From Candidatus Undinarchaeota archaeon (GTDB lineage: Archaea; SpSt-1190; DYHY01; CAZGQF01), in contig CAZGQF010000002.1 in assembly GCA_964527545.1 (NCBI GenBank), forward strand, positions 23,452 through 87,451: a stretch of 64,000 nt of DNA. The letters are read 5' to 3'. The notes under the pieces are model-generated. The model made no database searches, was not told the origin of the DNA, and worked only from the letters and a program-made list of their open reading frames with translations. Position 1 is the stretch's first letter. Every line of letters begins with the position of its first letter. This document shows positions 8,409 to 49,977 of this stretch, one piece after another. The position numbers and the translations under genes were made by a program.

Positions 8409-8453
8409 CTCCGCGGTGGACACGTTTTTATACGCCCGGAGTCTCAACTCCCC

Positions 8454-10794: not shown

Positions 10795-10836
10795 GGGAAA
10801 CCCCCCTGAAGCCCGCTTAAAAGAGTTGAGAAGGTT

Positions 10837-11088: not shown

Positions 11089-11107
11089 TTTTATCCCAGC
11101 AGTTCTC

Positions 11108-11476
11108 TCAGTTCTGGAGTTCTTTGTAGAGTTCCTCTCTCACGGCATCGACTCCGAAGTAGCCCTGCTCCCCCATGAAGAGTTCCAGGTCTTCGACCTT
11201 CTTGAAGTATCTCTCTGCCCAATCTTCTCTGCCGTCTTGGAGTTCTTTCTCTGCCTCTCCCAGAAGGCCCTCAGCTGTCCCTATCACGACGCTGTTGAAG
11301 GTTTTTTTGGCGCCCTCAGGGACCTTGAGCCTCCCGCGGATCTCCTCCACGCGAAGGCCCTTCATCTTCTGCAGCTTCCAGTACGCCTTGTTGAATTTGC
11401 CTTCCCTCTCCGCGCGGAAAGCAGGTGCCAGGAGTCTGGTGTACTGTTCTTGTGTCGCGTTTTCATCCACGTCCAT
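11108..11476 (-). CDS. Hypothetical protein
   Basis: 122-aa ORF directly upstream of the preceding one on the same strand. Confidence 0.4.
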   Translation of the reverse strand: MDVDENATQEQYTRLLAPAFRAEREGKFNKAYWKLQKMKGLRVEEIRGRLKVPEGAKKTFNSVVIGTAEGLLGEAEKELQDGREDWAERYFKKVEDLELFMGEQGYFGVDAVREELYKELQN

Positions 11477-11577
11477 AGTTAGTCATTATACAGTAGTGAC
11501 TTAAATAGCTTACGGTCCAGATTATGGATTAAAGTCCCTTTTCTGGGCCCTAAAGCGCTCGAGCCAGGGCTGGGAAG

Positions 11578-11613
11578 TCCATGGACTGGAGGGATTCAAA
11601 GCGGTCAATGTCC
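11578..11613. repeat. Truncated copy of tRNA-Ala 3' end plus GGTCAATGTCC module
   Basis: CCATGGACTGGAGGG is identical to 11839-11853 in the tRNA-Ala gene; followed by a degenerate T-arm and GGTCAATGTCC, which recurs at 63507-63517. Confidence 0.6.
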
Positions 11614-11716
11614 TGTGACTCCGTCACAGGCTGGAAGGAAACTTCGTTTCCGACATCCCCGCGAGCCTGTGCTGTCTTTGATAGCACCAAGAAATTTTCT
11701 TTGGGGTTGGACAACC

Positions 11717-11743
11717 CCCTAATTGAGCGGAGCTCAATTGGGC
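11717..11743. repeat. Quasi-palindromic motif CCCTAATTGAGCGGAGCTCAATTGGG (copy 1)
   Basis: Inverted repeat ATTGAGC/GCTCAAT; near-identical copy in opposite orientation at 63682-63706; preceded by palindrome GGGGTTGGACAACCCC. Confidence 0.6.
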
Positions 11744-11841
11744 GCAATCGAGCTATATTGGAAACATTGTTTCCTACTATCGTACGAAGCTCTGCTTCGT
11801 AGATGCTCGATTAGCGTTTCTTTGGAAAAGAAAGGGGGCCA

Positions 11842-11915
11842 TGGACTGGAGGGGATTTGAACCCCTGGCCGCCTCGATGCGAACGAGGCGCTCTACCAGA
11901 CTGAGCTACCAGCCC
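11842..11915 (-). tRNA. tRNA-Ala (anticodon CGC)
   Basis: Manual fold: acceptor GGGCTGG with G3:U70, D arm GCTC-AGTCTGGTA-GAGC, anticodon arm CCTCG-UUCGCAU-CGAGG, T arm AGGGG-TTCAAAT-CCCCT, discriminator A; 74 nt. Confidence 0.85.
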
Positions 11916-11994
11916 GTGTGTTTACCTATGCGAGCGCCGTTGGCGAAGCCAACGAGCGCCCCAGCGCCGGCCGATGGGTTGCGGCCGCGTCTGT

Positions 11995-12015
11995 ACCAGA
12001 CTGAGCTACCAGCCC
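11995..12015. repeat. Duplicated 5' segment of tRNA-Ala (21 nt) without a matching 3' half
   Basis: ACCAGACTGAGCTACCAGCCC at 11995-12015 is identical to 11895-11915 (tRNA positions 1-21); downstream sequence is GC-rich and lacks a CCAGCCC/CCAGTCC acceptor strand. Confidence 0.55.
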
Positions 12016-12047
12016 TTGCAGAAATCTCGGCCACGTCGCTTAAAAAA

Positions 12048-13004
12048 CTATAGAGAAGTCGGTGGTTTCAGCCATCTCTCAAGCCAGAGATAGGCGTTCT
12101 CCCAGCTTTTCCTGTCGAAGTGGTGGCCGCCCTCGAACCAGGCAAGCTCGAGGCTGTCTTCCGCGCCTTCCTTTACGTAGGACTCCTCCAGCACTCCGTA
12201 GGCCCTCTCCACAGCCTTCTTGGGGAAGTTCTCGTCCTGCACGGCGGAGACCATCATCATCGGCCTGGGCGCGACCAGGGAGGCCACCTCTGGCAGGTCC
12301 GTTCTTTCGAGCAGGCCTGGGATGTAGGGGAGGAAGCAGTGGTAGACCCGCGTCTCCAGTATCTCTGGAAAGGAGCCCATGGCACAGCTGGCAACGACCG
12401 CCCCTAATCTCTCGTCCAGGGCCGCCGCCATCCAAGCCTGCATCCCGCCGAGCGAGTGGCCGGCCGCGCCTATGCCCTTGACGAACGACAGGGAGGAGAG
12501 GTAGTCCGCACATGAGATGACGTCCTCGACCATAGTCTTGGCGATGCAGGAGCCGTGGAGCAGCGCTCTTGTCGCCTCGAACCTCTCGTCCCCGCCAGGC
12601 AGCCTCTCCTCGCTCGGCGTCACGTTGGGGTCGTGCCTCTCCTCGAAGCAGATGGAGTCGGGCGCGAGTACAGCAAAACCTCGCCGGGCGAGCTCCCTGC
12701 CGAAAGGGATGGAACCGTTCTCTGCGTTGTAGTCTCTCCCGTCCACGGGCAGCCCCATCACCTCGCTCTTCCCGACTTCGTACTGGAGGTCTGCCTGGTG
12801 GAGAGCGATGACAGCCGGCCAGGGCCCCTCCCCCTCCGGAAGGGCGAGGTAGGCGGGGATCTCCCTGTCGGTCTTCAGAAGGAGCTTCTTCAGAGTGAAC
12901 CCTTCCTCGTCTCTCTCCTCGCCCTCCTCGACGGAGAGCTTCTTGTTCCTTCTCAGGCCGCCCATCGCCTTCTCGAGGAAATGTGTCAGCTCTTCTCTCT
13001 CCAT
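12048..13004 (-). CDS. Alpha/beta-hydrolase (dienelactone hydrolase/esterase-like)
   Basis: Nucleophile elbow GHSLGG, C-terminal His; start set at ATG 13004, one nt after the upstream gene stop. Confidence 0.6.
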   Translation of the reverse strand: MEREELTHFLEKAMGGLRRNKKLSVEEGEERDEEGFTLKKLLLKTDREIPAYLALPEGEGPWPAVIALHQADLQYEVGKSEVMGLPVDGRDYNAENGSIPFGRELARRGFAVLAPDSICFEERHDPNVTPSEERLPGGDERFEATRALLHGSCIAKTMVEDVISCADYLSSLSFVKGIGAAGHSLGGMQAWMAAALDERLGAVVASCAMGSFPEILETRVYHCFLPYIPGLLERTDLPEVASLVAPRPMMMVSAVQDENFPKKAVERAYGVLEESYVKEGAEDSLELAWFEGGHHFDRKSWENAYLWLERWLKPPTSL

Positions 13005-36800: not shown

Positions 36801-39366
36801 CCTCAACGCTCGAGTTGGCGTCGATCTCGACACTCACGAAGCCGAACTCTGCAGGAGACGCCTTTGAGTTGTTGAGGGAGAGCGTGTGGCGGACGTTGAT
36901 GGTGCTGGGCTGGGGGAAAGGCGGGTTGGAGTAGCCGCGGAACTCTATCTCTTCGCCTCTCGAGAAGTCGTCAGTGTCTATCTCGTAGGTCCCAGTCCAG
37001 ACAGGAGTGCTGTTCCAGTTGCCTGCCGCGTCCCTCACTATGAAGGTGGCGTTGACCTCCGTGGAGTTGGGGAGCGACGAGAAGAACTTGATGCAACGGC
37101 CGTCCTCCACGTTGAGAGTCTCAGGCGTCTGCGCCGCGCCGTCGAAGTAGGCCGTTATGTTGCAATGCGTCGCACCACTATTGTCGTCGCTGACGTTTGC
37201 GTAGAAGACTGGCCTGTCGTTGGCCACCGTTTCGTTGACGGACGGCGAGACGCCTGTCACGTTCGGGTCTGTCCCGTCCACGGCGAGGTCGAGTCCGACA
37301 GTCAGGTTGGAGTAGCTGAAGCTGTCGGTCGCGTTGAAAGAGAGAGTGTGGTCGCCGCTGCCTCCAGGTATCTGGCAGGCGAGCGAGTAGTTGCCGTCAC
37401 CCGCCGAGCTGTCGATCCCTGCGCCGTCGTCCTTGAGCTCCGTCCAGCTCCCGCCGAGGGGAGTCAAGTTGAGTGTGAAGTTGGTGACCAAGCCGATGTC
37501 CTCCACTCTCGCGAAGACCTCGATCCAGTCGCCAGGCTTCACGACTGTGTCGTTGACCATGACGTCCAGTACGTCCGGCGCCGACCTGTCGATGGTGAGG
37601 TTGACCCGCTGGCTTGAGTTGTAGTGGCCGAAGGTGTCGTTGGCGAAAAAGATGATTGTCTGGTTGCCTTCCTCTGCCTCAGGCACGGTGTAGCGGGCAG
37701 AGTGGTTGCCGTCGCCCCCTGCGGCGTCTGGCTGGGAGCCGTCATCAAGAAGGCGGGCAGTGTTGAAGTCAACAATGTGCACGTAGGAGTAGGTTCCCGA
37801 TGCGTCGTAGTAGGTTATCAGCTCGTCAGTGCCGTCACCGTCACTGTCGATGGTCCCTTCCACGTAAAAACTGCTGATTATCTTGTCTGCAGTTAGGTTG
37901 AAGACGACGCTCCTGTTTACGAACGGATCGAAAAACCTTGAGTTGCCATAGTTGTTGCTGTCCGTGTAGACCAGCGTCTCCCTGTTTCCGCCGTAAAAGG
38001 AGCCCTTGCTCTGCGTTGAGGTTGTCAGCTCTCCGAACACGATCGGCGTATCAGCAATCTGTGTCTGGTTGTCGTAGAACTTCGAGTCGAAAATAATCTC
38101 CTTGCTTCCGTCCCCGTCGCTCTCGATGGCGACCAGGGACAACGAACTGGAGACCAACTCTGACGTGTTGTAGTACTCTTGTGTCTGGTTGTCGAAGATG
38201 TGGAGGTAGCTCGTAGTCGCATTCGAGTAGGCGATCTCCCCTGCACCGTCTCCGTCGATGTCGCCGCACACGAACTGCGAGGACTTTATGCTCGTATTCT
38301 CCAAGCGCCCTGTGGCGTTTTCGTAGATCATGACCCATTGTCCTGTTTTGTTCCTGAACAGTATCTCATCCGCACCGTCGCCGTTCACGTCGCAGAGATG
38401 GAGATACCCTGAGGCGTAATCCGTCACTGAATATGTCGTATTGGTCGAGTTGTCGAGGACGGCAACGTAGTAGCTGCTCATGTCTTCCGTGACGTTCAAA
38501 TAGACCACCTCGTTCTCGCCGTCGCCGTTCACGTCCCCGACTTGAGGCACAAATCCGAGCCTGCCGGTAGAGTCTGTCCTGCCGTTCGCAAAGTCCCTTA
38601 TCTCGATGGGAAAGCCAGTGGACCAGCTGCCCTCGGAGACGTTGTTGTAGACAAGTTCGTCCGCACCGTCGCCGTTCACGTCGCCCGATCCAAGCATGGG
38701 TGACCCTGTGTAGGTGAGCACGCTCGTGTTTGTCGATGCATGGTCGAAAGGCATCAACGCCTTGACGCCTTTTACATCACCGTCCGAGTTGTTGGCCATT
38801 GCATAGAGCTCGATGATTGAACCGTTTGTGACCAGCGTCTGGTTGACAGTGGCGTTGACAGTCGGCCAGGTTAGGTTGACATAGGTGTAGTTCTCTGCGT
38901 AGCAGGGCGCGTCTGTCGCGTTGTCCCGGGCGGTCGCGTTCCAGGTCACGTTGCCGTCTTTCCAGGCAGACATGAGGAGGGTTATGTTCAGGTAGTCGCC
39001 GGCGGTCGCATTCGGATAGTTTTCCTTGGGCGTGCAGTTGACTTTCTCCCTGTAGCCGTCGCTGTCCGAGTCCCAGACGCCGCACTCCCAGGCAGTCCCG
39101 TTCGCCTTCCCGGTCTCGTTCGACCACCATGTCGCCTCGGCGTAGGTGACATTGTAGTGCTCTCTCGGCGAGGTGATGTTCGAAAGTTCTGTCATGTTCC
39201 AGGACTCCGGCCCCTCGTTCCAGAGGGTGAAGTTGTAGTAGCGGGGGAGGGCAGACCCCACGTAGGCCGTCTCGTTGACAGTGAGATTTGCCGCGGCCGA
39301 GGCCAAGCCTAGCAGAAAGAGCAGGACCAGACCTTGCTTCAACACACGGAAGCAACTACAGACCAT
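33874..39366 (-). CDS. Giant integrin-like surface glycoprotein (FG-GAP-like repeats, Cys-rich stalk, TM, cytoplasmic tail)
   Basis: Signal peptide from ATG 39366 (track ORF extends to 39678); several D-x-N/D-G-D-G-x-x-E repeats; many N-x-S/T sequons; acidic linker; Cys-rich RCGDGLCEEDVCCEDCGC; TM VVIAAVVLLLLALAGG; about 110-aa tail. Confidence 0.7.
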   Translation of the reverse strand: MVCSCFRVLKQGLVLLFLLGLASAAANLTVNETAYVGSALPRYYNFTLWNEGPESWNMTELSNITSPREHYNVTYAEATWWSNETGKANGTAWECGVWDSDSDGYREKVNCTPKENYPNATAGDYLNITLLMSAWKDGNVTWNATARDNATDAPCYAENYTYVNLTWPTVNATVNQTLVTNGSIIELYAMANNSDGDVKGVKALMPFDHASTNTSVLTYTGSPMLGSGDVNGDGADELVYNNVSEGSWSTGFPIEIRDFANGRTDSTGRLGFVPQVGDVNGDGENEVVYLNVTEDMSSYYVAVLDNSTNTTYSVTDYASGYLHLCDVNGDGADEILFRNKTGQWVMIYENATGRLENTSIKSSQFVCGDIDGDGAGEIAYSNATTSYLHIFDNQTQEYYNTSELVSSSLSLVAIESDGDGSKEIIFDSKFYDNQTQIADTPIVFGELTTSTQSKGSFYGGNRETLVYTDSNNYGNSRFFDPFVNRSVVFNLTADKIISSFYVEGTIDSDGDGTDELITYYDASGTYSYVHIVDFNTARLLDDGSQPDAAGGDGNHSARYTVPEAEEGNQTIIFFANDTFGHYNSSQRVNLTIDRSAPDVLDVMVNDTVVKPGDWIEVFARVEDIGLVTNFTLNLTPLGGSWTELKDDGAGIDSSAGDGNYSLACQIPGGSGDHTLSFNATDSFSYSNLTVGLDLAVDGTDPNVTGVSPSVNETVANDRPVFYANVSDDNSGATHCNITAYFDGAAQTPETLNVEDGRCIKFFSSLPNSTEVNATFIVRDAAGNWNSTPVWTGTYEIDTDDFSRGEEIEFRGYSNPPFPQPSTINVRHTLSLNNSKASPAEFGFVSVEIDANSSVEEVTLDGTPLAYDKIENSTNDTVWFDVGTLSAGEKRDYFIDYNTTSLRNVNGTDRRNAEIVEGEPIKWTQNVTVVNDLIIGGTIQAIFPVPHDATNIRGVNWTVCDDCDNSSSTTGDFAKEVFFLGAGSSRKFNVTYDLPAPALTEETDTVFSSENETHVSWVEELTLENRASKEIDNVSVSFEAPTYNTTPYDLTYNGDAVPFEFSWPSWLNWTENATMPANSELTYNLEFETKKLNVSDVKWATPVKAEVAYPLNLSVVLQSYYGFSFWLDTEIVGLRTDRSDSDTLMPYENTTFSSNYEFDISDPAGVYTLRYNMTRTFYFDTPFSDTTTVTLLDTPVVPIELDQDEAEIGDWVEIEKGFFNNTGATATATYRFEIFDDDGELVINNTKYPVTWDGAIDLTSGDYADISRTKINRTNPPGTYSVYASLTSGTSYTALSRSGETINSSATFDIPTILDCSFNNEDITVGGTSRRSVQNIGNVATTLEVEIDEDEEEMYTDLEDEITLTPGQSRTIEIYVPTDDEGFEGTVTLKACDREVDVAVDVEPDLNGGGGFIGGGGDDDEEEEEGEEEEGNETEEVSQAETDFQELKDKIEEIRDLGIPLEIEQEVIEEIESMIAAGQLSDAETLISSLDSSIGTASVVDSYEPRMLTTSDVALELAKNYTNETDMEAINEEVIFEVEAEVVKWEVGGQTNYYTTITISAKLRSSKENALLVVTVPKDLAGDADSLRFFDQPIVFEDDPVFAYQLDTIGKTFRYQFLEDLDQGSLNMITTTAVAKRVPRCGDGLCEEDVCCEDCGCPEGEECNTSTHRCEEVEEEVDVEGAGGGISPVVIAAVVLLLLALAGGGYYLYKTKKDEGVNVAKVLESPDEYPIVYLTGYLKAVDEHNGNLTDDSGSIKVYSEGGLSDMSCMVKGRVENGILMAEEIIPVGNRLEKETQAGGGEGDTTTSGGFKGEETGSSPGTTGNQWTPPSQ

Positions 39367-39403
39367 TATTAAAGCTTTAAAGGGGCAGAGGGAGTTCGGG
39401 CGG

Positions 39404-39646
39404 GTGAGAGTCGAGGTCAAAGTCAGAACCAGCGCCCAAAAGGAGAGGATTGAGCTTGAGGACGGCCGCCTCGTCGTCTCCCTCAAGGAGCCAGCCAGGA
39501 AGGGAAAGGCCAATCTTGCCCTCGTGAAGCTCCTCGCCGGCAGGGCGGGCTGCTCTTCTGCAGAGGTGGCCTTTGTCAGCGGCCTCTCCTCGCGGAGGAA
39601 AGTACTTGAGTTTCCAGACTGCGAGATAGAGAAGCTGCTCGGATGA
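39404..39646 (+). CDS. YggU-like (DUF167/UPF0235) small protein
   Basis: VEVKVRTSAQKERIE...GKANLALVKLLA...VSGLSSRRKVLEF matches DUF167 pattern; in-frame GTG at 39404 proposed (track ORF from 39275 overlaps the signal-peptide end of the giant gene). Confidence 0.45.
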   Translation: MRVEVKVRTSAQKERIELEDGRLVVSLKEPARKGKANLALVKLLAGRAGCSSAEVAFVSGLSSRRKVLEFPDCEIEKLLG

Positions 39647-39830
39647 CTTTTGGCACGTTCGTGGCAAACCTCCCGCAATACTTATAAATGGCCTTTCTCT
39701 CCTCTCTGCAGAACTCACATCATCAGTTCGCATTCACTGTACATGGGAAGCGCCGGTTAACATTGATGTCTAGGCGCGGTTGCAGGGCAGCTCGGCTGAT
39801 TTTGCAGAGTTCTGAAGAAGGTGAAGAAGA

Positions 39831-41039
39831 ATGGGAAAGATAAGTCCAATCGCAGCAAAATACACTGTTAAGGCTAAACTGAAGGCCGAAGGGGTCGTCG
39901 AGAAGCCTGACGTGGTAGGAGCAGTTTTCGGCCAGACGGAGGGCCTCCTCGGAAGCGACCTGGAGCTGAGGGAGCTCCAGAAGAGCGGCCGCATAGGGAG
40001 GATCGAAGTCTCTGTCTCGAGCAAGGGGGGGAAGACCACGGGGACGATAGAGATACCTTCCTCAATGGACAAGGCCGAGACCGCGATAATAGGGGCGGCG
40101 ATAGAGACCATCGACAGGATAGGTCCCTGCGACGCCAAGCTGAAGGTCGTCTCCATCGACGACGTTCGCTCAAGCAAGAGAAAGTTCGTGAGTTCGAGGG
40201 CCAAGGAGCTTCTCAAGAAGATGATGGAGGGCTCAATGCAGGAGTCTGAGGAGCTGACAGAGGCAGTGAAGGACTCAGTCAGGGTGAGCGAGCTCGTCGA
40301 ATACGGCAAGAACAAAGTCCCTGCCGGGCCGGCCATCGACTCGAACGAGGACTTGATTGTGGTGGAAGGAAGGGCGGACGTCCTCAACCTGCTGAAGCAC
40401 GGCTTCAAGAACGTTGTCGCCATCGGCGGGACAAAGGTCCCGGACACGGTCAAGGAGCTGACAAAGCACCACACCGTCACCCTCTTCATCGACGGGGACA
40501 GGGGAGGAGAGCTGATACTGAAGGAGATGCTCCAGGTCGCCGAAGTCGACTTCCTCGCCAAGGCGACGCCTGGCAGGGAGGTCGAGGAGATCTCCGAGAA
40601 GGAGATCCACAAGGCGCTCCGCTCCAAGGAGCCGATAACACAGGCCATGCTCGAGGACGCTGGCGTGGGCGGCAAGAAGTCAAGGGACAGGAAGTCGAAG
40701 AAGTCCTCCAGCTACGACTGGAAAAAGGACGCCAAGTCGCTCGGAGAAGAGACCCGCAAGAAGCTGAAGGAGATAGCTGACGACCTCATCGGGACGAGGG
40801 GCGCTTTCCTGCTGGACGAGAAGAACGAGATACTGGGCAAGGTCCCCGTGGCAGAGCTCCGAAAGACCCTGAACAAGATCGAAGGCGTCAAGGCCATAGT
40901 GATGGACGGCAAGATAACGAGGAGTTTGGCCAAGATGGCGAGGGACAGCAAAGTCGAGACTGTCGTCGGCTCCAAGAGGGCAGGCCTGAGCAGCCCGCCG
41001 AGAGGGCTCATCATACTGACCGGCGAAGAGCTGGGCTGA
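39831..41039 (+). CDS. dnaG: Archaeal DNA primase DnaG (TOPRIM)
   Basis: TOPRIM motifs LIVVEGRADVLNL and TLFIDGDRGGE; archaeal DnaG-like N-terminal region. Confidence 0.85.
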   Translation: MGKISPIAAKYTVKAKLKAEGVVEKPDVVGAVFGQTEGLLGSDLELRELQKSGRIGRIEVSVSSKGGKTTGTIEIPSSMDKAETAIIGAAIETIDRIGPCDAKLKVVSIDDVRSSKRKFVSSRAKELLKKMMEGSMQESEELTEAVKDSVRVSELVEYGKNKVPAGPAIDSNEDLIVVEGRADVLNLLKHGFKNVVAIGGTKVPDTVKELTKHHTVTLFIDGDRGGELILKEMLQVAEVDFLAKATPGREVEEISEKEIHKALRSKEPITQAMLEDAGVGGKKSRDRKSKKSSSYDWKKDAKSLGEETRKKLKEIADDLIGTRGAFLLDEKNEILGKVPVAELRKTLNKIEGVKAIVMDGKITRSLAKMARDSKVETVVGSKRAGLSSPPRGLIILTGEELG

Positions 41040-41041
41040 AT

Positions 41042-41491
41042 TCAGCGGATGTAGCTGGAGTCGACCACTTCCTCGGACTTCTCCTCTTTTTTCTTGGGAG
41101 AGAAGTGGGGGAACTTGATGGGCGGCGGGAGCTGCATGTCGTCTGTCATGAGGACGCAGAGCCTGATGCACTTCCTGGTTATGGCGTTGAGGGCCATGAA
41201 CTTCGCGTCCTCCTTCAGCGAAGTCTCCGTCCCCTTTGTTTGGACAAGGTCTTCGATCTTTTCGTCTGTCAGGAAGGCCTCGCCCTCCACCCTGAAGTCC
41301 CCTATCCTCGGGTTGTAGCTGCTGGTGAAGACGAAGTCGACGGCAACGACCTCCTGGCCCTCGTGCTTCATCCTTGAGACCTTCCTGAGGTGCGTCGAGG
41401 AGGAGACTTTCACCTTCTTCGGCCTCCCGTGGGCGTGTATCCTGTCCGCCGCAATCCTTGCAAAGTAGATGGCATCGACTTCCATGTCCAC
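41042..41491 (-). CDS. Hypothetical protein
   Basis: 149-aa ORF convergent with dnaG; no motif recognised. Confidence 0.4.
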   Translation of the reverse strand: MDMEVDAIYFARIAADRIHAHGRPKKVKVSSSTHLRKVSRMKHEGQEVVAVDFVFTSSYNPRIGDFRVEGEAFLTDEKIEDLVQTKGTETSLKEDAKFMALNAITRKCIRLCVLMTDDMQLPPPIKFPHFSPKKKEEKSEEVVDSSYIR

Positions 41492-41546
41492 ACCCCTCAG
41501 CCTGCCTATTTAACTGCTCTCCACTCACCCATACCCAAATATATTC

Positions 41547-42554
41547 TTGGCCACTTTCTTTCCCATGCGACTGCCGCGCGCCACACTCCTCCTTCTCTTC
41601 GTCAACCTGCTCGTCTTCAGGCTCGCGGCCGGCTCCTTCTTTGCTTCACCTCTCGTCTCAGAGATCTCCCGCTTCGGCCTCTCGCCCGCCAACCCGCTCT
41701 CTGTCTTCACCTACCAGTTCCTCCACCTCTGGCCAGCCCATCTCGCCACCAATCTCTTTCTCCTACTCGTCTTCGGCTCCATAGTGGAGGGGGCGGTCGG
41801 CGGACACAAGACGCTGGCCCTCTACCTCTGTGGCGGCGTCACCGGCGGCGTCGTCCATCTTTTCTTGGAGGGCGGGACGGTGGTCTCGGGCGCCAGCGCC
41901 AGCGTCTGGAGCGTGGTCGGGGCGGCCCTTGTTCTCCGCCCGATTCTCTCCTTCACTTCGTTCGCCGCTTCCCTGCTGCTCGTCCCTTTCGCTCTCCACC
42001 CGTCAGTGCAGTGGGCGAGAAGAAGCTGGGAGGAGGCGAGAGGCGAAGAGCTGGGAGCAGTGGTCTCCAGGGAGGAAGAGGCGAGAGGCGAGTTTTTCAG
42101 GACTGCGCAGGAGGTCGCGGAGCTGATGGAGAACAGGTCCTCGGCCGAGAGCGAAGCTGCGGCGAGGGAGGACGAGCTGGAGAGGCTGGAGGAGATGAAA
42201 AAGGCCGGAGAGCTCTCGCCCGAGGAGTATGAAGATAGGGCAGAGCCCCTCGAGGAGGCTTTGGAGGAGAGAGAGGCGGAGATACGCGAGCTGGAGGCGA
42301 GGGTCGAGGAAGAGGAGCGTCAGCTCAACCAGACGGGAGAGCAGCTCTCGCGCCTCTCAAGGCTCTCATCGTCGCTGAGAAGAGAGATGGAGCTCTTCTA
42401 CTACTCTTCCCAGCTTGAGCAGGAGACGGCCACAGCGGAAGCTCCGCACCTGGCAGGCCTCCTGACAGGCTATCTCATGGTCATTCTCTCGGAGCCGCTC
42501 GCCTTCGAGAGATGGAAAAGGTATTTTACGGACTGGTGCGGGAGTGGGCCATGA
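41547..42554 (+). CDS. Rhomboid-like membrane domain fused to charged coiled-coil region
   Basis: N-terminal polytopic domain with rhomboid-like HLxxNL...GxxxEG and GASASVWSVVGA; C-terminal approx 170 aa E/R/A-rich coiled coil. Confidence 0.5.
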   Translation: MATFFPMRLPRATLLLLFVNLLVFRLAAGSFFASPLVSEISRFGLSPANPLSVFTYQFLHLWPAHLATNLFLLLVFGSIVEGAVGGHKTLALYLCGGVTGGVVHLFLEGGTVVSGASASVWSVVGAALVLRPILSFTSFAASLLLVPFALHPSVQWARRSWEEARGEELGAVVSREEEARGEFFRTAQEVAELMENRSSAESEAAAREDELERLEEMKKAGELSPEEYEDRAEPLEEALEEREAEIRELEARVEEEERQLNQTGEQLSRLSRLSSSLRREMELFYYSSQLEQETATAEAPHLAGLLTGYLMVILSEPLAFERWKRYFTDWCGSGP

Positions 42555-43891
42555 AAGAGATTGTCGTGGGGCGTGACGAGTCGGATCGCCAGAGGTTCGG
42601 CGATACTGGCCTCTCTTACCTGGCCAAGCACTACGTGACCACCGGCGACAAGACCAACCTCGCCAACAAGGTGATGATGGACTTCGCCCGCCCCCACGTC
42701 GTCTTCATCTGCGGCAAGCGCGGACAGGGAAAGTCCTACACTCTCGGCGTGATGGCGGAGGAGATGACACTCCTCGAGCCGAAGCTGAGAAAAAGGCTGG
42801 CCAGCGTCATCTTTGACACGATGGGCATCTACTGGTCGATGAAGTTCCCCAACGAGAGGGGAGAGCCCCTCCTCAAGGAGTGGGACCTGGAGCCGAGGGC
42901 AGTCGACACCAATGTTGTCGTCCCCTTCGGCTTCGTCGACCAATATCGCGAGTGGGGAGTCCCAGTCGACGAGACTTTCGCCCTCAAGGCGAGCGAGCTG
43001 ACAGCCAGCGACTGGTGCGCCACCTTCGGCATCGACCTCTTTGACAAGATGGGCATTCTCATCGACCGCGTGGTGAAGAAGCTTAAGGAGGGGAGCGGGG
43101 ACTACTCGTTCGACGACTTTGTCGACGCTGTCGGCCAGGACGAGAGGGCCGACGTCTCCGTGAGGGACGCTGTGGAGAACCGCCTCATGGCTGCGGAGGA
43201 CTGGGGCCTCTTCCACAGGAAGGGGACGAGCCTGAGCAAGATAATCCAGGCAGGAAAGGTCAACGTCCTCGACATCTCTGTCTACGGCGGCGCCATAGGG
43301 GGCTGGTCGACCCGCTCACTCGTGGTCGGCCTCATAGTGAAGCGCGCCTTCGAGGCCAGGATGATGGCACGCAGGATGGAGGAGATGGGGGCGATAAAGA
43401 CGGCCCAGAGCGAGTTCCAGACTGAGGAGAAGCTCTACAAGGAGGCGGTCGAGAAGATGCCGATGACGTGGTTCTACCTCGACGAGGCGCACGAGATGAT
43501 GCCGCGCACAGGCTCCACTCCAGCCCTCGCACCGCTGGTCCAGCTGATCCGCGAGGGCCGCCAGCCCGGTCTCACGCTGGTCGCCGCCACGCAGCAGCCG
43601 GGAAAGATCCACACCGACATGATGAGCCAGACCGACCTTGTGGTCTCCCACCGCGTTACCTCTGTCCCCGACATGGGAGCGCTCAACAACATCATGGGCA
43701 CCTACATGAGGTTCAATCTTGAGAACTACCTCGCCTCCCTCCCCAGGGAGAAGGGGGCGGCAATCCTCCTCGACGACAATTCCGAGAAGGTCTATCCCAT
43801 CAGGATGCGGCCGCGCCTCTCCTGGCACGGCGGCGAGAGCGCGACGCTGCTGAGAAGCCACGAACAGGAGACCGTAGAGGGAGTGGGCTGA
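42551..43891 (+). CDS. HerA/FtsK-superfamily P-loop ATPase (DUF87-like)
   Basis: Walker A GKRGQGKS and Walker B WFYLDEAHE; ATG at 42551 overlaps the upstream stop (ATGA). Confidence 0.6.
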   Translation: MKEIVVGRDESDRQRFGDTGLSYLAKHYVTTGDKTNLANKVMMDFARPHVVFICGKRGQGKSYTLGVMAEEMTLLEPKLRKRLASVIFDTMGIYWSMKFPNERGEPLLKEWDLEPRAVDTNVVVPFGFVDQYREWGVPVDETFALKASELTASDWCATFGIDLFDKMGILIDRVVKKLKEGSGDYSFDDFVDAVGQDERADVSVRDAVENRLMAAEDWGLFHRKGTSLSKIIQAGKVNVLDISVYGGAIGGWSTRSLVVGLIVKRAFEARMMARRMEEMGAIKTAQSEFQTEEKLYKEAVEKMPMTWFYLDEAHEMMPRTGSTPALAPLVQLIREGRQPGLTLVAATQQPGKIHTDMMSQTDLVVSHRVTSVPDMGALNNIMGTYMRFNLENYLASLPREKGAAILLDDNSEKVYPIRMRPRLSWHGGESATLLRSHEQETVEGVG

Positions 43892-45772
43892 CTACTCCTC
43901 AAGCTTCGGGACCATCTTCTCAACCAGCAGTATGAGGTCGCGGATGTCCGTCTTTGTGGGCATCTCCTTCAGCTCCTCCTCCATAGTGCGGGCCACGTTG
44001 GAGATCCTGCGCAGGTCCGCCTCCATCTCCGAGAGCTTCTCCCTGGTCTCGTGGGGCGATGCCTCCTCCAGCCTCTCTATCTTGTCCAGGAGTTTCTCCA
44101 CGTGCTTTTCGTGGGACTCCACGCCCTTCTCCATCCTCGCCAGGTCGGCGGACGACGTGTTGACTTTGGCATTGACCTTCTCGACGCGGTCGAGAAGTGA
44201 GCGTATCTCCCCTCTAATTGAGGCCGCGACCTTTCTCGCCTCCTCCCCGCTGTCCATCGCCTTCATCTCTTCCTTGGTGACCGCCTTCTCGCCGAGCTTC
44301 TCGACCCTCTCGATCAGCGAGGCCTGAGCCTCGCCGATTCCCTTTACGCTCTTGGCGATGGTGTTGATCCTGTCGTTCAGTATGTCCCTCGTCTCCCTCA
44401 AGACGCCGACCTCCTTCTTCAGCTCGTCGCCCGGAACAGACTCCAATCTCTTCTTCATCTCATGGAGCGGCTCCTGGAGCGCCTTCTCGACCATCTCGCG
44501 CTCCCTCTCCTTGCTTCTCTCCATCCTGATCTGGAGTTCGTCAATGACCTCGCCCATCTCCGATGTTTTTTTCTCCAGTCTTGAGAAACGGTCGTCCGCT
44601 TCCATCCCTGCCAGGATGCGCTGGTTCTGGTCCACGACCTCCTCCAGGCGGTCGAAGTCCTCCCTTGCCCTGTCCAGGCTCGCGCCCATCCCCTTCATCT
44701 TCTCTATCTCGCCCTGGAGGTGCTCTTCTCTCTTGCTCAGCTCCTTCAGCGCGTTCATCACCCTTTCGCTCGATGCGACAGTCTCCTTCCCGCCGACTGT
44801 CTTGATCTCGTCCTTGAGGTCTTCAACCCCCCGCCTCAAGTTCCTCTCTGTCTCCTCCAGCTTCTCCGCCAGCCCCTGCTGGGCCGACTCGACCTTCTCT
44901 ATCCTGGCCATCCCGCCGCCTGCTGCCTTGGCTGCCTCCTCGACGGCCTCCAGCTTCGCCTCCAGCTTCTCCGCCCTCGCCTTCCCCGTCTCCTCGACCT
45001 CCCTTATCCTCTCGACAAGGCCCTCCTCCACAGTCTTGCTCAGCTCCAGCTCGCTCTTCAGCTCCTCCCTCTCTGTGGCGCCCCTCCTTATCTCCATCAG
45101 CTCCTTGCTGACTGTGTTGCTCAGCTCCGAGAGGTTCTCCACTTTCGTTTCCAGCTGTTCGCACTTGTCGTGGAGCCGCGAGGTAAGCTCCATGTTCTTG
45201 CCGAACTTCTCCCCAAGGGAGCCGGCCTTCTGGGAGAGCTCCATCTTCTCACTCTCGAAGGCGAGCGTCGACTTCTCCAGCTTGTTGAGCCTCCTCTCTA
45301 TTGCGTTGATCGAGCTTATCAGTGTCTCCCTGACATCTGAGAAGAGCCGGATCCGCTCGTTGAGCTGGTCCATCTTCCTCTCGAGCTCCGTGTCGTCGAG
45401 CTTCTCCGCGATGGCGGAGAGCTGTGACTCCCTTTTCTTGGTCTGCGCCGAGACCATTTTCACTTCTTTGGAGAGCCTTGCTATGGCGGACTCTATGTCT
45501 GACTGCTGGCGCCCCCGCGAGACTATCTCGTCGCTTATCCTCTCCAGCCTCTTCTGGAGCTCCCTGACCTCCTGCCTGGCCTTCTGGTCCTCTCCCGTCT
45601 CCGAGAACTCGAGGACCCTCTTCCTTATCACGCCGTAGGCCTTGGAAAGCTCATCCAGCCGCTTGGACTGCGCGGAGAGCCTTCCGTCCAGGGCCTCCAA
45701 ACTCTTGGCGAGGCCGTCTTTCTCTTTTCTACCCTCTCTCGGGCCGAGCAGATCGTCTATAACGTTAGCCAT
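43892..45772 (-). CDS. Long coiled-coil protein (~625 aa)
   Basis: Continuous heptad-like E/K/R/L-rich sequence without TM or nucleotide-binding motif; start at ATG 45772; 8-nt overlap with upstream gene. Confidence 0.55.
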   Translation of the reverse strand: MANVIDDLLGPREGRKEKDGLAKSLEALDGRLSAQSKRLDELSKAYGVIRKRVLEFSETGEDQKARQEVRELQKRLERISDEIVSRGRQQSDIESAIARLSKEVKMVSAQTKKRESQLSAIAEKLDDTELERKMDQLNERIRLFSDVRETLISSINAIERRLNKLEKSTLAFESEKMELSQKAGSLGEKFGKNMELTSRLHDKCEQLETKVENLSELSNTVSKELMEIRRGATEREELKSELELSKTVEEGLVERIREVEETGKARAEKLEAKLEAVEEAAKAAGGGMARIEKVESAQQGLAEKLEETERNLRRGVEDLKDEIKTVGGKETVASSERVMNALKELSKREEHLQGEIEKMKGMGASLDRAREDFDRLEEVVDQNQRILAGMEADDRFSRLEKKTSEMGEVIDELQIRMERSKEREREMVEKALQEPLHEMKKRLESVPGDELKKEVGVLRETRDILNDRINTIAKSVKGIGEAQASLIERVEKLGEKAVTKEEMKAMDSGEEARKVAASIRGEIRSLLDRVEKVNAKVNTSSADLARMEKGVESHEKHVEKLLDKIERLEEASPHETREKLSEMEADLRRISNVARTMEEELKEMPTKTDIRDLILLVEKMVPKLEE

Positions 45773-46463
45773 CTTCCTTGAACTCCACGAAGGTCTTTGT
45801 GGGGCAGAGCCCTTCAACTCTCTTCTTTCCCGCGCCCCCTATCGCGACCAGGGCGAAACAGCCCTGGAGACGTGACTGCTCTGAGAGAACAGTTAATATT
45901 GCTTCTGCAGAGCGCCCCGTCCTTATGACGTCGTCGACGAAGAGCGTCTTCGTCGAGGAGCTGCAGACCTCTGCAGGCAGGTAGAGGGGACGGGCGGTCC
46001 CCTTCTCGTCGAAGATGTTGATCTCTATGTAGTCTTTCACTCCCAGCTTCTTTCTCTCGCGGAGGTAGCCGATCCTCGCCCCGATCTCCTTTGCCAGCAG
46101 CGTGGCGACGGGCAGGCCGTCCTCCGTGGTGACTACCAGTTCCACCTTTTCGTAGTCTCCAGCCACCGCTTTTGCAATTGAAGAGAGCAGCTTAACGTCT
46201 GTTAGGAGGTCGATGTCGTTGATGAACCTTCCGAACTTCAATATCTTGCTTTTCGCCTCTTCCTTCAACCTTCCCCCATAGAGGGAGATTATCATCCCAC
46301 TCTTCTCCTGGTTGGGCAGTACCCTGCCCTTAACGTAGCGGTTGAGGACCGTTATGGGGAGGCCGGTCTCGCCGGAGAGCTTCTTGTAGGTCTTCTCCCT
46401 CTTCTCCCTCTTCAGGAGCTGGACTGCCCGGAGAGAACGTTTTACCCTTCCCAGCCTTCGCAT
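45765..46463 (-). CDS. HTH plus phosphoribosyltransferase-like regulator (GfcR/PyrE2-like)
   Basis: N-terminal HTH (TYKKLSGETGLPITVLNRYVKG) and C-terminal PRTase motif TLFVDDVIRTGRS. Confidence 0.5.
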   Translation of the reverse strand: MRRLGRVKRSLRAVQLLKREKREKTYKKLSGETGLPITVLNRYVKGRVLPNQEKSGMIISLYGGRLKEEAKSKILKFGRFINDIDLLTDVKLLSSIAKAVAGDYEKVELVVTTEDGLPVATLLAKEIGARIGYLRERKKLGVKDYIEINIFDEKGTARPLYLPAEVCSSSTKTLFVDDVIRTGRSAEAILTVLSEQSRLQGCFALVAIGGAGKKRVEGLCPTKTFVEFKEDG

Positions 46464-46543
46464 GCTGGGTTTGACATATTCGTGATTAAAAGAGTTCCCA
46501 CTGGTCTCGATAAGAATAAAAGAGCTTGTTATGGTAGGGCGGC

Positions 46544-47542
46544 ATGCTCCCTGACAAGCTGGAGGAGGGCGACGAGGTCAGAGTCATCGCACCGTCCAGG
46601 TCGCTCTCCATAATCTCTTCCGACGTGAGAAAGCTGGCTGAGAGAAACCTCGAGTCCCTCGGCCTGGAGGTCACATACTCTGAGCACGCCGAGGAGTCGG
46701 GCGAGTTCAGATCGCCTTCGCTCTCCTCCCGCCTCTCCGACATACATGCCGCCTTCTCTGACTCGGGCGTGAAGGCGATACTCTCCTCCATTGGTGGCTG
46801 GAACGCCAATCAGCTGCTTCCCCATCTCGACTACTCCCTCATAGCCCAGTGCTCCAAGATATTCTGCGGCTACTCTGACATCACCGCCCTCCAGAACGCC
46901 ATCTATGCAAAGACGGGCATGGTCACTTACTCAGGGCCGCACTTCTCGTCCTTCGGCATGGAGGAAGGCCTTGAGTATACAGTCGAGTATTTCAGGAAGT
47001 GCCTCTTCTCGGAGTCGCCATTCGAGATACTGCCTTCGCCCCGATGGAGCGAGGACGAGTGGTTCATCGACCAGGAGGACAGGACTTTCATAGACAACCC
47101 AGGCCACTTCATCATAAACGAGGGCCTTGCGAACGGGGAGATAGTCGGGGGAAACCTCGGCACGTTCTCCCTTCTCAAGGGAACAGAGTACATGCCAGAT
47201 CTCGAGGGCAAAGTCCTCTTCTTCGAGGACTGCCTTGAGTCGCCCACATCATATCTCTGTGACTTCGACCGCGAGCTCACCTCCCTCATGCAGCAGCCCG
47301 GATTCGAGGACGTGGAGGCCATAGTGCTGGGCAGGCTACAGTCCGTGAAGGGTCTGACCCGCCAGCGCCTCAAGGAGAAGCTTGTTCTCCTGGTTGAGGC
47401 CAAGTCTGAGCTCGACAACATTCCAGTGATCGGGGGCGTCGACTTCGGCCACACCACCCCCCAGATCACTTTCCCAATAGGCGGCACGGTCGAGATAGCG
47501 GCAGAAGGAGACGAGACTGAGATAAAAATGATGATGCACTGA
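46544..47542 (+). CDS. LD-carboxypeptidase (peptidase S66, MccF/LdcA-like)
   Basis: GDEVRVIAPS N-terminus, GYSDITAL nucleophile region, FGHTTPQ C-terminal His motif. Confidence 0.6.
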   Translation: MLPDKLEEGDEVRVIAPSRSLSIISSDVRKLAERNLESLGLEVTYSEHAEESGEFRSPSLSSRLSDIHAAFSDSGVKAILSSIGGWNANQLLPHLDYSLIAQCSKIFCGYSDITALQNAIYAKTGMVTYSGPHFSSFGMEEGLEYTVEYFRKCLFSESPFEILPSPRWSEDEWFIDQEDRTFIDNPGHFIINEGLANGEIVGGNLGTFSLLKGTEYMPDLEGKVLFFEDCLESPTSYLCDFDRELTSLMQQPGFEDVEAIVLGRLQSVKGLTRQRLKEKLVLLVEAKSELDNIPVIGGVDFGHTTPQITFPIGGTVEIAAEGDETEIKMMMH

Positions 47543-47548
47543 GGCATC

Positions 47549-48400
47549 CTAGCCAGAGCTGATTAGCGCTATCCCCACCACTGTCGCCGCCGCTACCGCC
47601 GTCCCCTTCAGGAAGCCGTCCTCCCCGAAGTACTTTCCGCCGACGAAAGAGGCCAGCACGCTCCCAGTCTTCTTCAGCGGTATGATGAGGCTGATGAGGC
47701 TCGACGGGGCGACGACAGCCTGGAAGTAGAAGAGGTCCCTCACGAACGAGAAGACGCCCAGAAGGAAGAGCAGGGGCTCCCCCTCGAAGCCGAGCCACAG
47801 CTCCTTCACGCCCTCCCTCCAGGCGATGACGACACCGTAGCCGACTGCCATGAAGAGGAACGGATAGAAGATCATGGAGGGGTAACCGACTGCGGCGGTT
47901 ATCGCCTTGTCGAGTACGGCGAGAAGGCAGCCCATGGTCATGGCTGCGAAGAGGGGGACGAGGGGGCCGGAGTCCGGGAGGTCAGACGGCTTCTTGAGGT
48001 GGAGCTCGTCTTTGAGGAGGAGGGAGGCGCCGACCACCAGGCCGACCCCTGCCAGCTGAGGGAGGCCGAGTCTCTCGCCGAGGAAGAGATAGCTGAACAA
48101 GAGGAGGATGACAGGCGAGGTGTTGCTGAGCGGCTCGATGAGATGTATCGACAGTTCCCTGAAGGCGCGCAGGTAGAGTATCCAGGACGACGCCATCAGA
48201 ACCGACTTCAGCATCAGCAAGGCGAATATTTCGAGGGAGGGGATTGGCGGGGGGAAGAGCGTCAGGGAGAGCAGCGAGACGGAGAGTGAGACGGAGAAAG
48301 CGAGGTGGAGCGGCATCTCCACCTTCAGCTCGCTTTTTGTGAGGATGTCGTTGAGAGCGACAAAAATGGCGGAGAGCAGCGACAGCACGACCCAGTCCAT
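47549..48400 (-). CDS. EamA/DMT-like membrane transporter
   Basis: About 9-10 TM helices with duplicated halves. Confidence 0.5.
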   Translation of the reverse strand: MDWVVLSLLSAIFVALNDILTKSELKVEMPLHLAFSVSLSVSLLSLTLFPPPIPSLEIFALLMLKSVLMASSWILYLRAFRELSIHLIEPLSNTSPVILLLFSYLFLGERLGLPQLAGVGLVVGASLLLKDELHLKKPSDLPDSGPLVPLFAAMTMGCLLAVLDKAITAAVGYPSMIFYPFLFMAVGYGVVIAWREGVKELWLGFEGEPLLFLLGVFSFVRDLFYFQAVVAPSSLISLIIPLKKTGSVLASFVGGKYFGEDGFLKGTAVAAATVVGIALISSG

Positions 48401-48459
48401 GTGCTTCTGCCCAGTTCCTCACTAATAACCCTTATATCTGACTGCGGACACACTCTGGC

Positions 48460-49404
48460 GTGAAGGCCTTCGACCTGGTCCAGCCGTCGATCGACTCGAC
48501 CGTCTCGTTCTACAGGAAGCTGGACCTTGAAGGCTGGCTGAAGATGGGACTGGTCAACACCCTTTCAGGCAGTGGCGGCGGCGGGAACCCAAGCGTCTCT
48601 TCCAGCAGCAGTGGCGGCGGTCCAACTCCGGAGATGCCAGACCCAGCCACTTTCCTCAAGAAGTGGGGCCCGGTCATCTTTGTCCTCGGCCTGGCGGGCG
48701 TGGTCCTCGCAGCGATAGGTGCCTCCATAACGTGGCTCTTCACTTTTCTCTTCTACGACATAGTGGACAGCGGCAAGATCAACTTCGATCTCTTCAAGCG
48801 GAAGTCCTCTGTCTGGCAGATGGTTCTCTACACTCTCGCCCTTGGGCTTCTCGTTCTCTTTGTTGTCTCTGTCGGCGGCGGAGGACTCTACGCAATCTAC
48901 TCCCGATCGGAGACTGCTGCCGTCCCCGCTTTCGTGTTGTTGGTGCCGCTCTTCCTCATCCTTTTCTCCCTGATCTTCTTGTTCAACACGCTGGTCACCA
49001 ACTTTGCGGTGCCAGACGTCTTCTACAGGAAGAAGTCCATCTGGGAGTCCCTGAAGGCCTCCCTCCCCGCAGTCTCTAAGAATCTTGGCGAGTCCTTCTT
49101 TTTCCTCTTGGCGAAGCTGGTGCTCGGCGCCGTGGCCAGCTTGATCCTGCTCATCGGGGCACTGTTGCTTTTAGTCCCGCTCGGCCTCATTGCAGCCATG
49201 GTGGCCTTGCCCTTTTTCCTTTTCGCCATCTTCGTCTCCGGTCCGGGCGCAGCAGCCGTCGCAATGGTCGCCGCGATTCTTGCCCTGCCCCTCCTCTTTC
49301 TCTTCGGCCTGGCAGTCTCGTCGCTCACTTCACCCATAAGCTTCTTCATGAACCACTACACGCTCTCATTCTACAGGAACGTCCTCTCCAAGTCGATGGT
49401 GTGA
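48460..49404 (+). CDS. Polytopic membrane protein (hypothetical)
   Basis: Gly/Ser-rich linker followed by 6-7 strongly hydrophobic helices. Confidence 0.45.
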   Translation: MKAFDLVQPSIDSTVSFYRKLDLEGWLKMGLVNTLSGSGGGGNPSVSSSSSGGGPTPEMPDPATFLKKWGPVIFVLGLAGVVLAAIGASITWLFTFLFYDIVDSGKINFDLFKRKSSVWQMVLYTLALGLLVLFVVSVGGGGLYAIYSRSETAAVPAFVLLVPLFLILFSLIFLFNTLVTNFAVPDVFYRKKSIWESLKASLPAVSKNLGESFFFLLAKLVLGAVASLILLIGALLLLVPLGLIAAMVALPFFLFAIFVSGPGAAAVAMVAAILALPLLFLFGLAVSSLTSPISFFMNHYTLSFYRNVLSKSMV

Positions 49405-49410
49405 GCCTGG

Positions 49411-49977
49411 CTAGACCGGCGCACTGGCCTCGACGACCTTGAGCCGGTACTTCGCAGTTGCCTCCGCCCCTCCAGGCATGGGAAGCACGCCTTTCTCCAG
49501 GCAGTCGTCGACCTGGGCTCGGTTTCTTCCTATCCTCTCCAGGTAGTCGCCGAGGTTCCGAAGGAAAGAGCAGACCCGCTTCTTCGGCTTCAGGAGGCCG
49601 AGGAAGATCTCGTCTCCCGGCCCCAGCGCGAAGAGGGCGTCCTTAACGACCTCCCCCTCGTAGATAGTGCCGTGACTGCCGCTCCCCTCGTAGAGGAGAT
49701 CCCCTTCCAGCATGAACAGTGTCCCGTGCTCTTCTGATATTGTGAAAGGCCAGTTCTCCTTCAGCCCGATTTTCTTGCCCCTTATCTCCATGAAGTCGTT
49801 CAGCAGGCTGTAGTTTTGGTTGTTCCTTCCAATGACCTTCTCCCCGGGCTTTATCTCCATCTCCCTGTAGGCGAATGGCGATGTCGGGTCTCGCGGCCTT
49901 CCCTTCTGGTCTTCTAGGTAGAAGAGGTCGTTCTGCCTCCTCAAGTCCTCGACCCTGATTGCGATTGCGCCCGGCAT
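49411..49977 (-). CDS. FHA-domain-like protein
   Basis: VIGRNNQN...ISEEHGTLF...GSGSHGTIYEGEVV...GDEIFLG resembles the FHA core. Confidence 0.4.
   Translation of the reverse strand: MPGAIAIRVEDLRRQNDLFYLEDQKGRPRDPTSPFAYREMEIKPGEKVIGRNNQNYSLLNDFMEIRGKKIGLKENWPFTISEEHGTLFMLEGDLLYEGSGSHGTIYEGEVVKDALFALGPGDEIFLGLLKPKKRVCSFLRNLGDYLERIGRNRAQVDDCLEKGVLPMPGGAEATAKYRLKVVEASAPV

Follow-up and report, generated by a model that had tools for sequence, protein, structure and literature searches.

We analyzed a 64,000-nucleotide stretch of contig CAZGQF010000002.1 from a Candidatus Undinarchaeota archaeon (hereafter the window), in which a gene for a rhomboid-type membrane protein is followed by one for a HerA-clade P-loop ATPase. 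The two genes lie on the forward strand downstream of a gene for an archaeal DnaG, and convergent to them is a gene for an all-coiled-coil protein, co-oriented with a helix-turn-helix (HTH)-phosphoribosyltransferase (PRTase) gene (Table 1). The original prediction, made from the sequence and its open reading frames (ORFs) without database searches, proposed that the rhomboid and the ATPase form a membrane-anchored translocation, remodelling or defence module. The features on which it built were recovered, namely a rhomboid domain in the first protein, the overlap between the two genes, the Walker A and Walker B motifs and the convergent coiled-coil gene.

A TATA-like box (AAATATATT) lies directly 5' of the TTG codon at 41547 that opens the longest rhomboid ORF, and about 20 nt 5' of an ATG at 41565. 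Because the box abuts the TTG, the ATG is the likelier start; the 329-residue protein that it gives has the length of database entry P0121 too, and the arrangement points to a transcript with a short leader or none, whose start is 41565 and not the TTG. Residue numbers of the rhomboid refer throughout to the 335-residue frame from the TTG. For the ATPase, the start at 42551 was preferred to an earlier ATG at 42512 because the consensus of a 41-sequence alignment begins there; GGAG stands 8-11 nt before this ATG, which overlaps the rhomboid TGA as ATGA. The rhomboid, ATPase, coiled-coil and HTH-PRTase ORFs all have homologues elsewhere, and their G+C contents at third codon positions (0.74-0.86) are typical for window genes. 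Scans for promoter and terminator consensus sequences, which are bacterial, returned counts at shuffle level.

A rhomboid with a coiled-coil hairpin in loop L5

The Pfam Rhomboid match covers residues 52-135 of the protein and positions 6-90 of the 143-position profile, with 54.2 bits against a gathering threshold of 22.6. The rhomboid core modelled by AlphaFold2 matches GlpG with a Foldseek probability of 1.0 and a TM of about 0.55 normalised to GlpG. An alignment with GlpG of Haemophilus influenzae takes in H60, H65, N69, S117 and W121, and both members of the catalytic dyad, Ser117 in the GASASVW motif of transmembrane helix (TM) 4 and His301 in TM6, proved intact. Family members and canonical rhomboids all have G115 and S117, and H301, G304 and G308 are invariant in seven family members; H65 is invariant in the family, and N69 is replaced by Asp in the P0127-P0130 subfamily. 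The catalytic residues have thus stayed the same while overall identity between members fell to only about 28%, which indicates selection for catalysis; the rhomboid is probably an active intramembrane serine protease. Its loop L1 is short, with predicted local distance difference test (pLDDT) values below 50 at residues 32-48; this region holds an R-F-G-L segment, and no WR dipeptide was seen in it by eye. The WR motif is not carried by all rhomboids.

The coiled coil had been taken for a C-terminal tail. This placement was wrong: the TM6 motif HLAGLLTG, of the form HxxGxxxG, stands 3' of the charged region, and the coiled coil is therefore an insert in loop L5, between TM5 and TM6. Canonical rhomboids matched a family profile in two stretches, positions 5-144 and 291-305, which in their own sequences are only about 25 residues apart. 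When residues 159-287 were excised in silico, the Pfam match grew from profile positions 6-90 to 6-138 of 143 and its score rose from 54 to 62 bits. In the AlphaFold2 model, TM5 is part of one continuous helix (132-219) that passes through a turn (220-224) into a return helix (225-294) and then into TM6 (298-315), with block pLDDT values of 87-96 across residues 161-280. The modelled hairpin is antiparallel and about 10 nm long, with some 70 residues per arm. G221, S224 and Y228 at its tip are invariant in the seven family members, and the Pfam SHOCT model scores 21.5 bits there (cutoff 27). The insert evolves faster than the core: between the window protein and its homologue in locus L082, the two are 25% and 52% identical, respectively.

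We predict from three kinds of evidence that the insert lies outside the cell. Homology with GlpG gives an orientation with both termini inside, and lysine and arginine are distributed accordingly, with seven in the predicted inside loops and one in the predicted outside short loops. In addition, the inserts of the P0127-P0130 subfamily have 8-12 Asn residues each, 7-8 of them in N-x-S/T sequons (shuffled expectation 1.5-2.6, P<=0.001), and both Asn residues of the window insert, N196 and N261, lie in sequons as well (P 0.017). An extracellular stalk would therefore be unable to bind or tether a cytoplasmic ATPase directly.

With GlpG-type rhomboids (PF01694; 2IC8, 2NR9) the protein shares the six-helix core, the GxS serine in TM4, the His of HxxGxxxG in TM6, the TM2 His and Asn, the aromatic residue four positions after the Ser and the predicted N-in/C-in topology. 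It differs from them in that the short L5 cap loop is replaced by a 147-residue hairpin, which prolongs TM5 and TM6 as extracellular helices of about 70 residues, and also in its short L1, in which no WR motif was seen, and in the absence of an N-terminal cytoplasmic domain. Rhomboids with regulatory extramembrane domains include YqgP/GluP of Bacillus subtilis and the eukaryotic iRhoms, which have a large L1 domain. The shared principle is the addition of a soluble domain that modulates how a rhomboid core admits substrates or binds partners; in the window rhomboid, however, the added element is a plain coiled-coil hairpin and sits in the gate/cap loop itself. To our knowledge, rhomboids are elaborated by domains at their termini, by additional TM helices or, as in iRhoms, by a larger L1, and not by L5 inserts; the architecture was not found in literature searches, which did not target L5 inserts specifically. 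The model points to a rhomboid variant with gate helices prolonged into an external coiled-coil lever, rather than a module, as the new element at this locus.

The variant is rare. A family profile run against 5.8 billion proteins returned seven members, and loci fetched for comparison (L numbers) supplied three more (in L119, L121 and L123), so the family has about ten members; the rhomboid-bearing loci all fall in one clade of a neighbour-joining tree of the ATPase. A metagenome scan with the family alignment returned mostly canonical rhomboids, the only family members being those of L085 and L086.

The HerA-clade ATPase and its neighbourhoods

The assignment of the ATPase to the HerA/FtsK superfamily was borne out, as the protein has the fold and motifs of the HerA clade (DUF87). 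It combines a RecA-like core, the Walker A and B motifs, a HerA-type helical insertion and a hexamer-forming fold, and its closest relatives in structure and sequence are not KaiC, RadA or RecA. In place of a full HAS barrel, the P-loop strand is preceded by only about 50 residues, which form three strands and a helix. The NCBIfam HerA equivalog NF040819 scores 35.6 bits (cutoff 970) and NF040937 scores 17.8 (cutoff 800). By these sequence comparisons the ATPase is not an orthologue of HerA proper. HerA of the HerA-NurA end-resection complex (4D2I from S. solfataricus, 9X1M from T. kodakarensis) has about 500-580 residues and a full HAS barrel, whereas the window ATPase has 446 residues and a shortened N-terminal domain. 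Archaeal HerA has NurA as its operon partner, usually along with Mre11 and Rad50, while the DNA-repair neighbours of the present family are Hef, ligase, MGMT or DnaG; the Pfam families of NurA, Mre11 and Rad50 were found neither among the called genes of L082-L084 and L119-L123 nor among the scanned window genes from 39275 to 49977.

The family is large and conserved. It has more than 5000 homologues (250 clusters at 50% identity with E<=1e-30), with named sources among the Aenigmat-, Woese-, Nano-, Nanohalo-, Micr-, Parv- and Altiarchaeota; the nearest named relatives are labelled Altiarchaeota and are 54-56% identical. Between the window and L082 the ATPase is 89% identical, compared with 42% for the rhomboid and 46% for the coiled-coil protein, and so evolves slowly. 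Many relatives carry inteins in the P-loop (around residues 57-61) or in Walker B (around residue 313), some with a LAGLIDADG homing endonuclease; P0134, P0138 and P0287 (the last labelled Nanoarchaeia) are among them. These inteins mark the gene as highly conserved and probably essential. Fusions with a winged helix or with DUF835 occur in some relatives. Long multidomain relatives of 750-1650 residues also occur (P0187 from Lokiarchaeota/Promethearchaeota, TFF89564.1, and P0216, P0236, P0248 and P0185), some with N-terminal extensions of about 270 residues, some with a C-terminal DUF835 and one with an ArsR/MarR-type winged helix.

We compared the window clade with 80 other ATPase loci from DPANN-labelled genomes. 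Neighbour lists for the fetched loci came from a simple ORF caller (longest ORFs, greedy) that yields some spurious antisense ORFs, and key neighbours were re-checked by tblastn or Pfam. No partner gene conserved across ATPase clades was found among these loci, and genes for DNA transactions recur. A Hef gene (DEAD, ERCC4 and HhH domains, confirmed by Pfam) lies directly 3' of the ATPase gene in L063, L068 and L079; in L066 and L076 a single gene for a small membrane protein stands between the two, and the L044 and L065 copies are within 2-7 kb. DNA ligase is the immediate 5' neighbour in L120, and L017 and L067 have it within about 6-6.5 kb. MGMT is found within 1.5-5 kb in eight loci from three clades, and DnaG 2.6-7.3 kb 5' in the window clade and in L005, L057 and L072 (two clades). 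Given these neighbours, the HerA fold, the inteins and the winged-helix fusions, we infer that the ATPase would work in replication or repair as a ring-shaped translocase or helicase on DNA, rather than as a membrane machine.

Several further arrangements were seen around ATPase genes. In L063, L066, L068 and L076 (at about 8000-12000 in each), the ATPase, Hef and DUF460 genes form an operon-like group with pilin-like proteins bearing class-III signals upstream; in L066 and L076, a protein of 160-168 residues with three or four TM segments overlaps the 3' end of the ATPase gene. A few other loci carry unrelated pilin-like proteins near the ATPase. A link between the ATPase and type IV pilin-like genes (clusters 1, 5, 12 and 19) was considered and set aside as functional evidence, as it is confined to the Aenigmatarchaeota-type clade and opposite-strand genes lie between. 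Loci of that type (L004, L008, L017, L035 and relatives) have genes for small proteins of about 88 and about 64 residues just 5' of the ATPase gene and divergent from it, in 22 and 12 loci, respectively, neither with a Pfam match. On a plasmid of Haloplanus sp. HW8-1 (L124; NZ_CP098519.1, 108101-124451), a homologue of 389 residues and 33% identity overlaps by 4 nt an upstream gene for a 380-residue protein without a Pfam match. The same cluster includes TGT/DpdA-like, QueF-like, BREX-ATPase-like and AddAB-like genes and looks like a 7-deazaguanine-type DNA-modification or defence island.

Distribution of the pair and flanking genes

The rhomboid gene stands directly beside the ATPase gene in six loci (the window, L081, L082, L083-85, L086 and L121), with spacings from a 4-nt overlap to 117 nt. 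The pairing is not peculiar to this genome; it is, however, confined to one clade, and no rhomboid match is adjacent to the ATPase in the 80 other loci. In L119 and L123 the rhomboid gene is two genes away, and the intervening genes include opposite-strand ones. Although the ATPase tree places L120 and L122 inside the rhomboid clade, neither carries a rhomboid at this locus: upstream of the ATPase, L120 has DNA ligase, and L122 has DnaG together with eS26-like and CutA-like genes. A 796-nt stretch without a called gene in L122 was examined as a possible decayed rhomboid and rejected, as it encodes the eS26-like zinc ribbon and the CutA-like protein instead. DnaG without a rhomboid is found in L005, L057 and L072, and we therefore regard the upstream DnaG as older at the locus than the rhomboid. 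The ATGA overlap itself is unremarkable, since 8 of the 29 same-strand neighbour pairs in the window share a 4-nt overlap.

Only L082, the closest relative, also encodes the convergent coiled-coil protein and the HTH-PRTase, and what follows the ATPase gene in other members of the clade is unrelated; the coiled-coil protein is probably not part of a rhomboid-ATPase unit. Its stop codon abuts that of the ATPase gene, and its gene overlaps the upstream HTH-PRTase gene by 8 nt; the HTH-PRTase has a weak Pfam HTH_3 match at its N-terminus. Proteins of 620 and 633 residues in L119 and of 645 residues in L122 were considered as homologues of the coiled-coil protein and rejected because they are not coiled coil; the L119 pair has pilin-like N-termini, and the L122 protein is weakly similar to it. 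The conserved protein of 149 residues encoded divergently from the rhomboid gene has a homologue in the same position in L082 (70% identical) and gave no match in Pfam, NCBIfam, PADLOC or PHROG scans.

Table 1. Genes and motifs at the rhomboid-ATPase locus (window coordinates)
Feature	Position	Strand	Remarks
Surface protein, about 1800-1900 residues	33874..39300	-	Longest ORF to 39678; rich in N-x-S/T sequons
Archaeal DnaG (Toprim)	39831..41039	+	Pfam Toprim; conserved upstream member of syntenic block
Conserved hypothetical protein, 149 residues	41042..41491	-	Divergent from rhomboid gene
TATA-like box AAATATATT	41537..41545	+	Read directly from the sequence; upstream of rhomboid gene
Rhomboid gene	41565..42554	+	Pfam Rhomboid E 2.3e-14; 329 residues; longest ORF, from TTG 41547, 335 residues
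TM2 motif HLATN (H65, N69)	41739..41753	+	Corresponds to GlpG oxyanion-hole His/Asn; aligned to H. influenzae GlpG
TM4 motif GASASVW	41889..41909	+	Catalytic Ser117 (41895-41897), aromatic W121; aligned to GLSGVVY of GlpG
Acidic coiled-coil hairpin, TM5-TM6 insert	41997..42437	+	147 residues (151-297); predicted extracellular
Hairpin-tip motif GELSPEEY (G-x-[IL]-S-x-[ED]-x-Y)	42207..42230	+	SHOCT-like, below threshold
TM6 motif HLAGLLTG (HxxGxxxG)	42447..42470	+	Catalytic His301; matched by canonical rhomboid TM6 segments
HerA-clade P-loop ATPase (DUF87), 446 residues	42551..43891	+	Family conserved in DPANN-labelled archaea
Walker A GKRGQGKS	42713..42736	+	G55, K56, R57, G58, G60, K61 and S62 invariant in 41 sequences
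Walker B YLDEAHE	43475..43495	+	D311, E312 and H314 invariant in 41 sequences
All-coiled-coil protein, 626 residues, cytoplasmic	43892..45772	-	Only weak coiled-coil-type matches
HTH-PRTase	45765..46463	-	NCBIfam NF006328 E 8e-44, 149.9 bits (cutoff 184)

Other observations concern the wider region. A zinc-ribbon protein of 68-69 residues is encoded between DnaG and the rhomboid or ATPase gene in L083 (6501-6710), L119 (5665-5871), L123 (422-628) and L122 (about 7420-7620); it has a weak Ribosomal_S26e match in L083, and none was noted at that position in the window or L082. Downstream of the HTH-PRTase gene, a polytopic DUF7544 membrane protein is encoded at 48460-49404 (+); its gene is displaced by LD-carboxypeptidase and EamA transporter genes from the position of its L082 counterpart (11961-12893). 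A tRNA of 89 nt at 1792-1880 (-), scored as tRNA by Rfam (55 bits) and left without a determined anticodon by ARAGORN, may be intron-bearing or otherwise atypical. The window contains no rRNA.

Competing explanations and significance

We favour the reading that the two are neighbour genes with separate jobs, kept together by descent and free of obligatory coupling, and we put its probability at roughly 60%. The rhomboid gene would have been inserted into an older block running from DnaG to the ATPase, at the base of one clade of compact genomes, and then stayed; the two genes would be co-transcribed here without obligatory functional coupling. Several points weigh against this reading. The six adjacent pairs are one, and every rhomboid with enough flank has the ATPase downstream on the same strand, despite divergence to about 28% identity. 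GGAG and the overlap imply co-transcription in this genome. The cytoplasmic C-terminal helix of the rhomboid is conserved, with P317 and W323 invariant. Protease activity and topology are predictions, and the DNA role of the ATPase is read from neighbourhoods, fusions, inteins and fold, where several of the neighbour links could be clade-level synteny.

The dedicated module of the original prediction fits the distribution poorly: the ATPase family extends far beyond the rhomboid family, two loci within the clade have no rhomboid, genes intervene in L119 and L123, and a 4-nt overlap is common in the window. The first three of these observations make it unlikely that the pair is a two-component membrane machine, in which the cytoplasmic tails of the rhomboid would dock a HerA-like hexamer, DNA or protein would be moved across the membrane in the manner of CedA/CedB or VirB4, and the stalk would touch a host or partner cell. 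No membrane partner is common to the ATPase clades, the predicted topology separates the coiled coil from the ATPase by the membrane, which would prevent contact, and the rhomboid retains all catalytic residues, as expected of a protease and not of a channel. VirB4/CedB-type ATPases (type IV secretion systems and the crenarchaeal Ced DNA import system), which we set apart on features other than direct sequence comparison, have a polytopic channel partner of CedA/VirB6 type, whereas the partner here is a catalytically intact protease that is absent in most lineages, and no pilin-like, VirB2-like or CedA-like gene was seen in the operon of the window clade. Literature searches found nothing relevant on rhomboids with HerA or on DUF87 ATPases in DPANN archaea. 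An antiviral system in which a HerA is paired with an effector, here the rhomboid or the coiled-coil protein, would account for weak matches to PADLOC HerA models and mad8 (best E 1.8e-13, mostly in C-terminal motor motifs), for the solved defence HerA proteins among the structural matches and for the distant haloarchaeal plasmid homologue in a DNA-modification or defence-like island. The window ATPase does share the hexameric HerA fold and C-terminal motor motifs with defence HerA proteins (Sir2-HerA/Nezha, DUF4297-HerA, TdpAB, DndH/DptH), but it has neither their effector partner nor a defence-island context. No defence model matched at full length: the PADLOC HerA matches span only about residues 290-430, and that to mad8 is partial. 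There is no adjacent gene for Sir2, DUF4297, a nuclease or another effector, and the neighbours gave no defence-specific matches, only coiled-coil-type ones to JetC/LmuB-like models. The flanks are housekeeping genes (DnaG, DUF167, PRTase, LD-carboxypeptidase). The ATPase is conserved at 89% against 42-46% for flanking proteins, and its tree gathers the relatives of the window into one clade, a clade-wise and apparently vertical pattern unlike that of patchy defence genes; there were no phage matches. With the partial PADLOC matches, this makes a defence function highly improbable.

The absence of phage matches argues in the same way against a mobile-element origin, in which a viral packaging ATPase, a conjugative coupling protein or a Zot-like protein landed beside the rhomboid. 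Inteins, weak PHROG matches to FtsK-like and Zot-like families and to the terminase large subunit (E 4.8e-15, confined to residues 266-384) and faint Pfam Zot and FtsK matches in relatives are what such an origin might leave. But 50,697 phage records contained no match, and only four plasmid records matched, weakly, of which the two near-full-length ones are 24-33% identical; the chromosomal site near DnaG is stable across the clade and the sequence is very highly conserved, so that we give this origin hardly any credence. The remaining alternative concerns the rhomboid, which might be a non-catalytic scaffold, a pseudoprotease like iRhoms or Derlins, with the stalk as a spacer or S-layer anchor. 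A large insert in a loop is reminiscent of iRhoms with their enlarged L1 domain, N69 has changed to Asp in one subfamily, and the short L1 has low pLDDT and no WR that could be seen by eye. We nevertheless regard a pseudoprotease as quite improbable, because members that are otherwise only about 28% identical all keep the GxS Ser, the HxxGxxxG His, His65 and the aromatic residue that follows the Ser, and because the proline typical of iRhoms before the catalytic Ser is absent from GASASVW.

In rhomboids, as known from GlpG, TM5 and L5 are the lateral gate and cap, and a rigid stalk continuous with TM5 and TM6 would for this reason serve as a lever or sensor. It could couple a signal from the envelope or from a partner cell to gate opening and to the cleavage of single-pass surface proteins. 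The HerA-clade ATPase would be the local copy of a slowly evolving family, acting as a cytoplasmic DNA translocase or helicase. One candidate substrate of the rhomboid is encoded about 2 kb upstream: the large surface protein is of the type-I single-pass kind that rhomboids cleave, its one C-terminal TM segment (ISPVVIAAVVLLLLALAGGGYYLY) being followed by a cytoplasmic tail of about 110 residues. A homologue occupies the same position in L082, with faint FG-GAP matches. Apicomplexan rhomboids shed adhesins. A bolder idea, which we consider a long shot, is that the stalk senses contact or tension: when the cell touches a host or its own envelope, the TM5 gate would open and giant single-pass adhesins such as the FG-GAP-like protein would be released. 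The conserved cytoplasmic C-terminal helix would couple the protease to the HerA-like hexamer, so that surface contact and a motor translocating DNA or protein would be joined in one clade-specific membrane-spanning apparatus.

A new rhomboid-HerA module is probably not real, and recording this guards against over-reading the gene overlap. The two proteins matter separately. Rhomboid gating by the TM5/L5 cap is still debated, and a natural lever variant would provide a useful test case for regulated intramembrane proteolysis; in a small-genome archaeon, the variant is also a candidate sensor of envelope or host contact. The ATPase marks an uncharacterised, very conserved and intein-bearing HerA-clade family that is widespread in DPANN-labelled archaea and has multidomain relatives in Asgard archaea. 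DPANN lineages have reduced DNA-repair gene repertoires, and the Hef, ligase, MGMT and DnaG neighbours make a role of the ATPase in DNA repair or replication testable.

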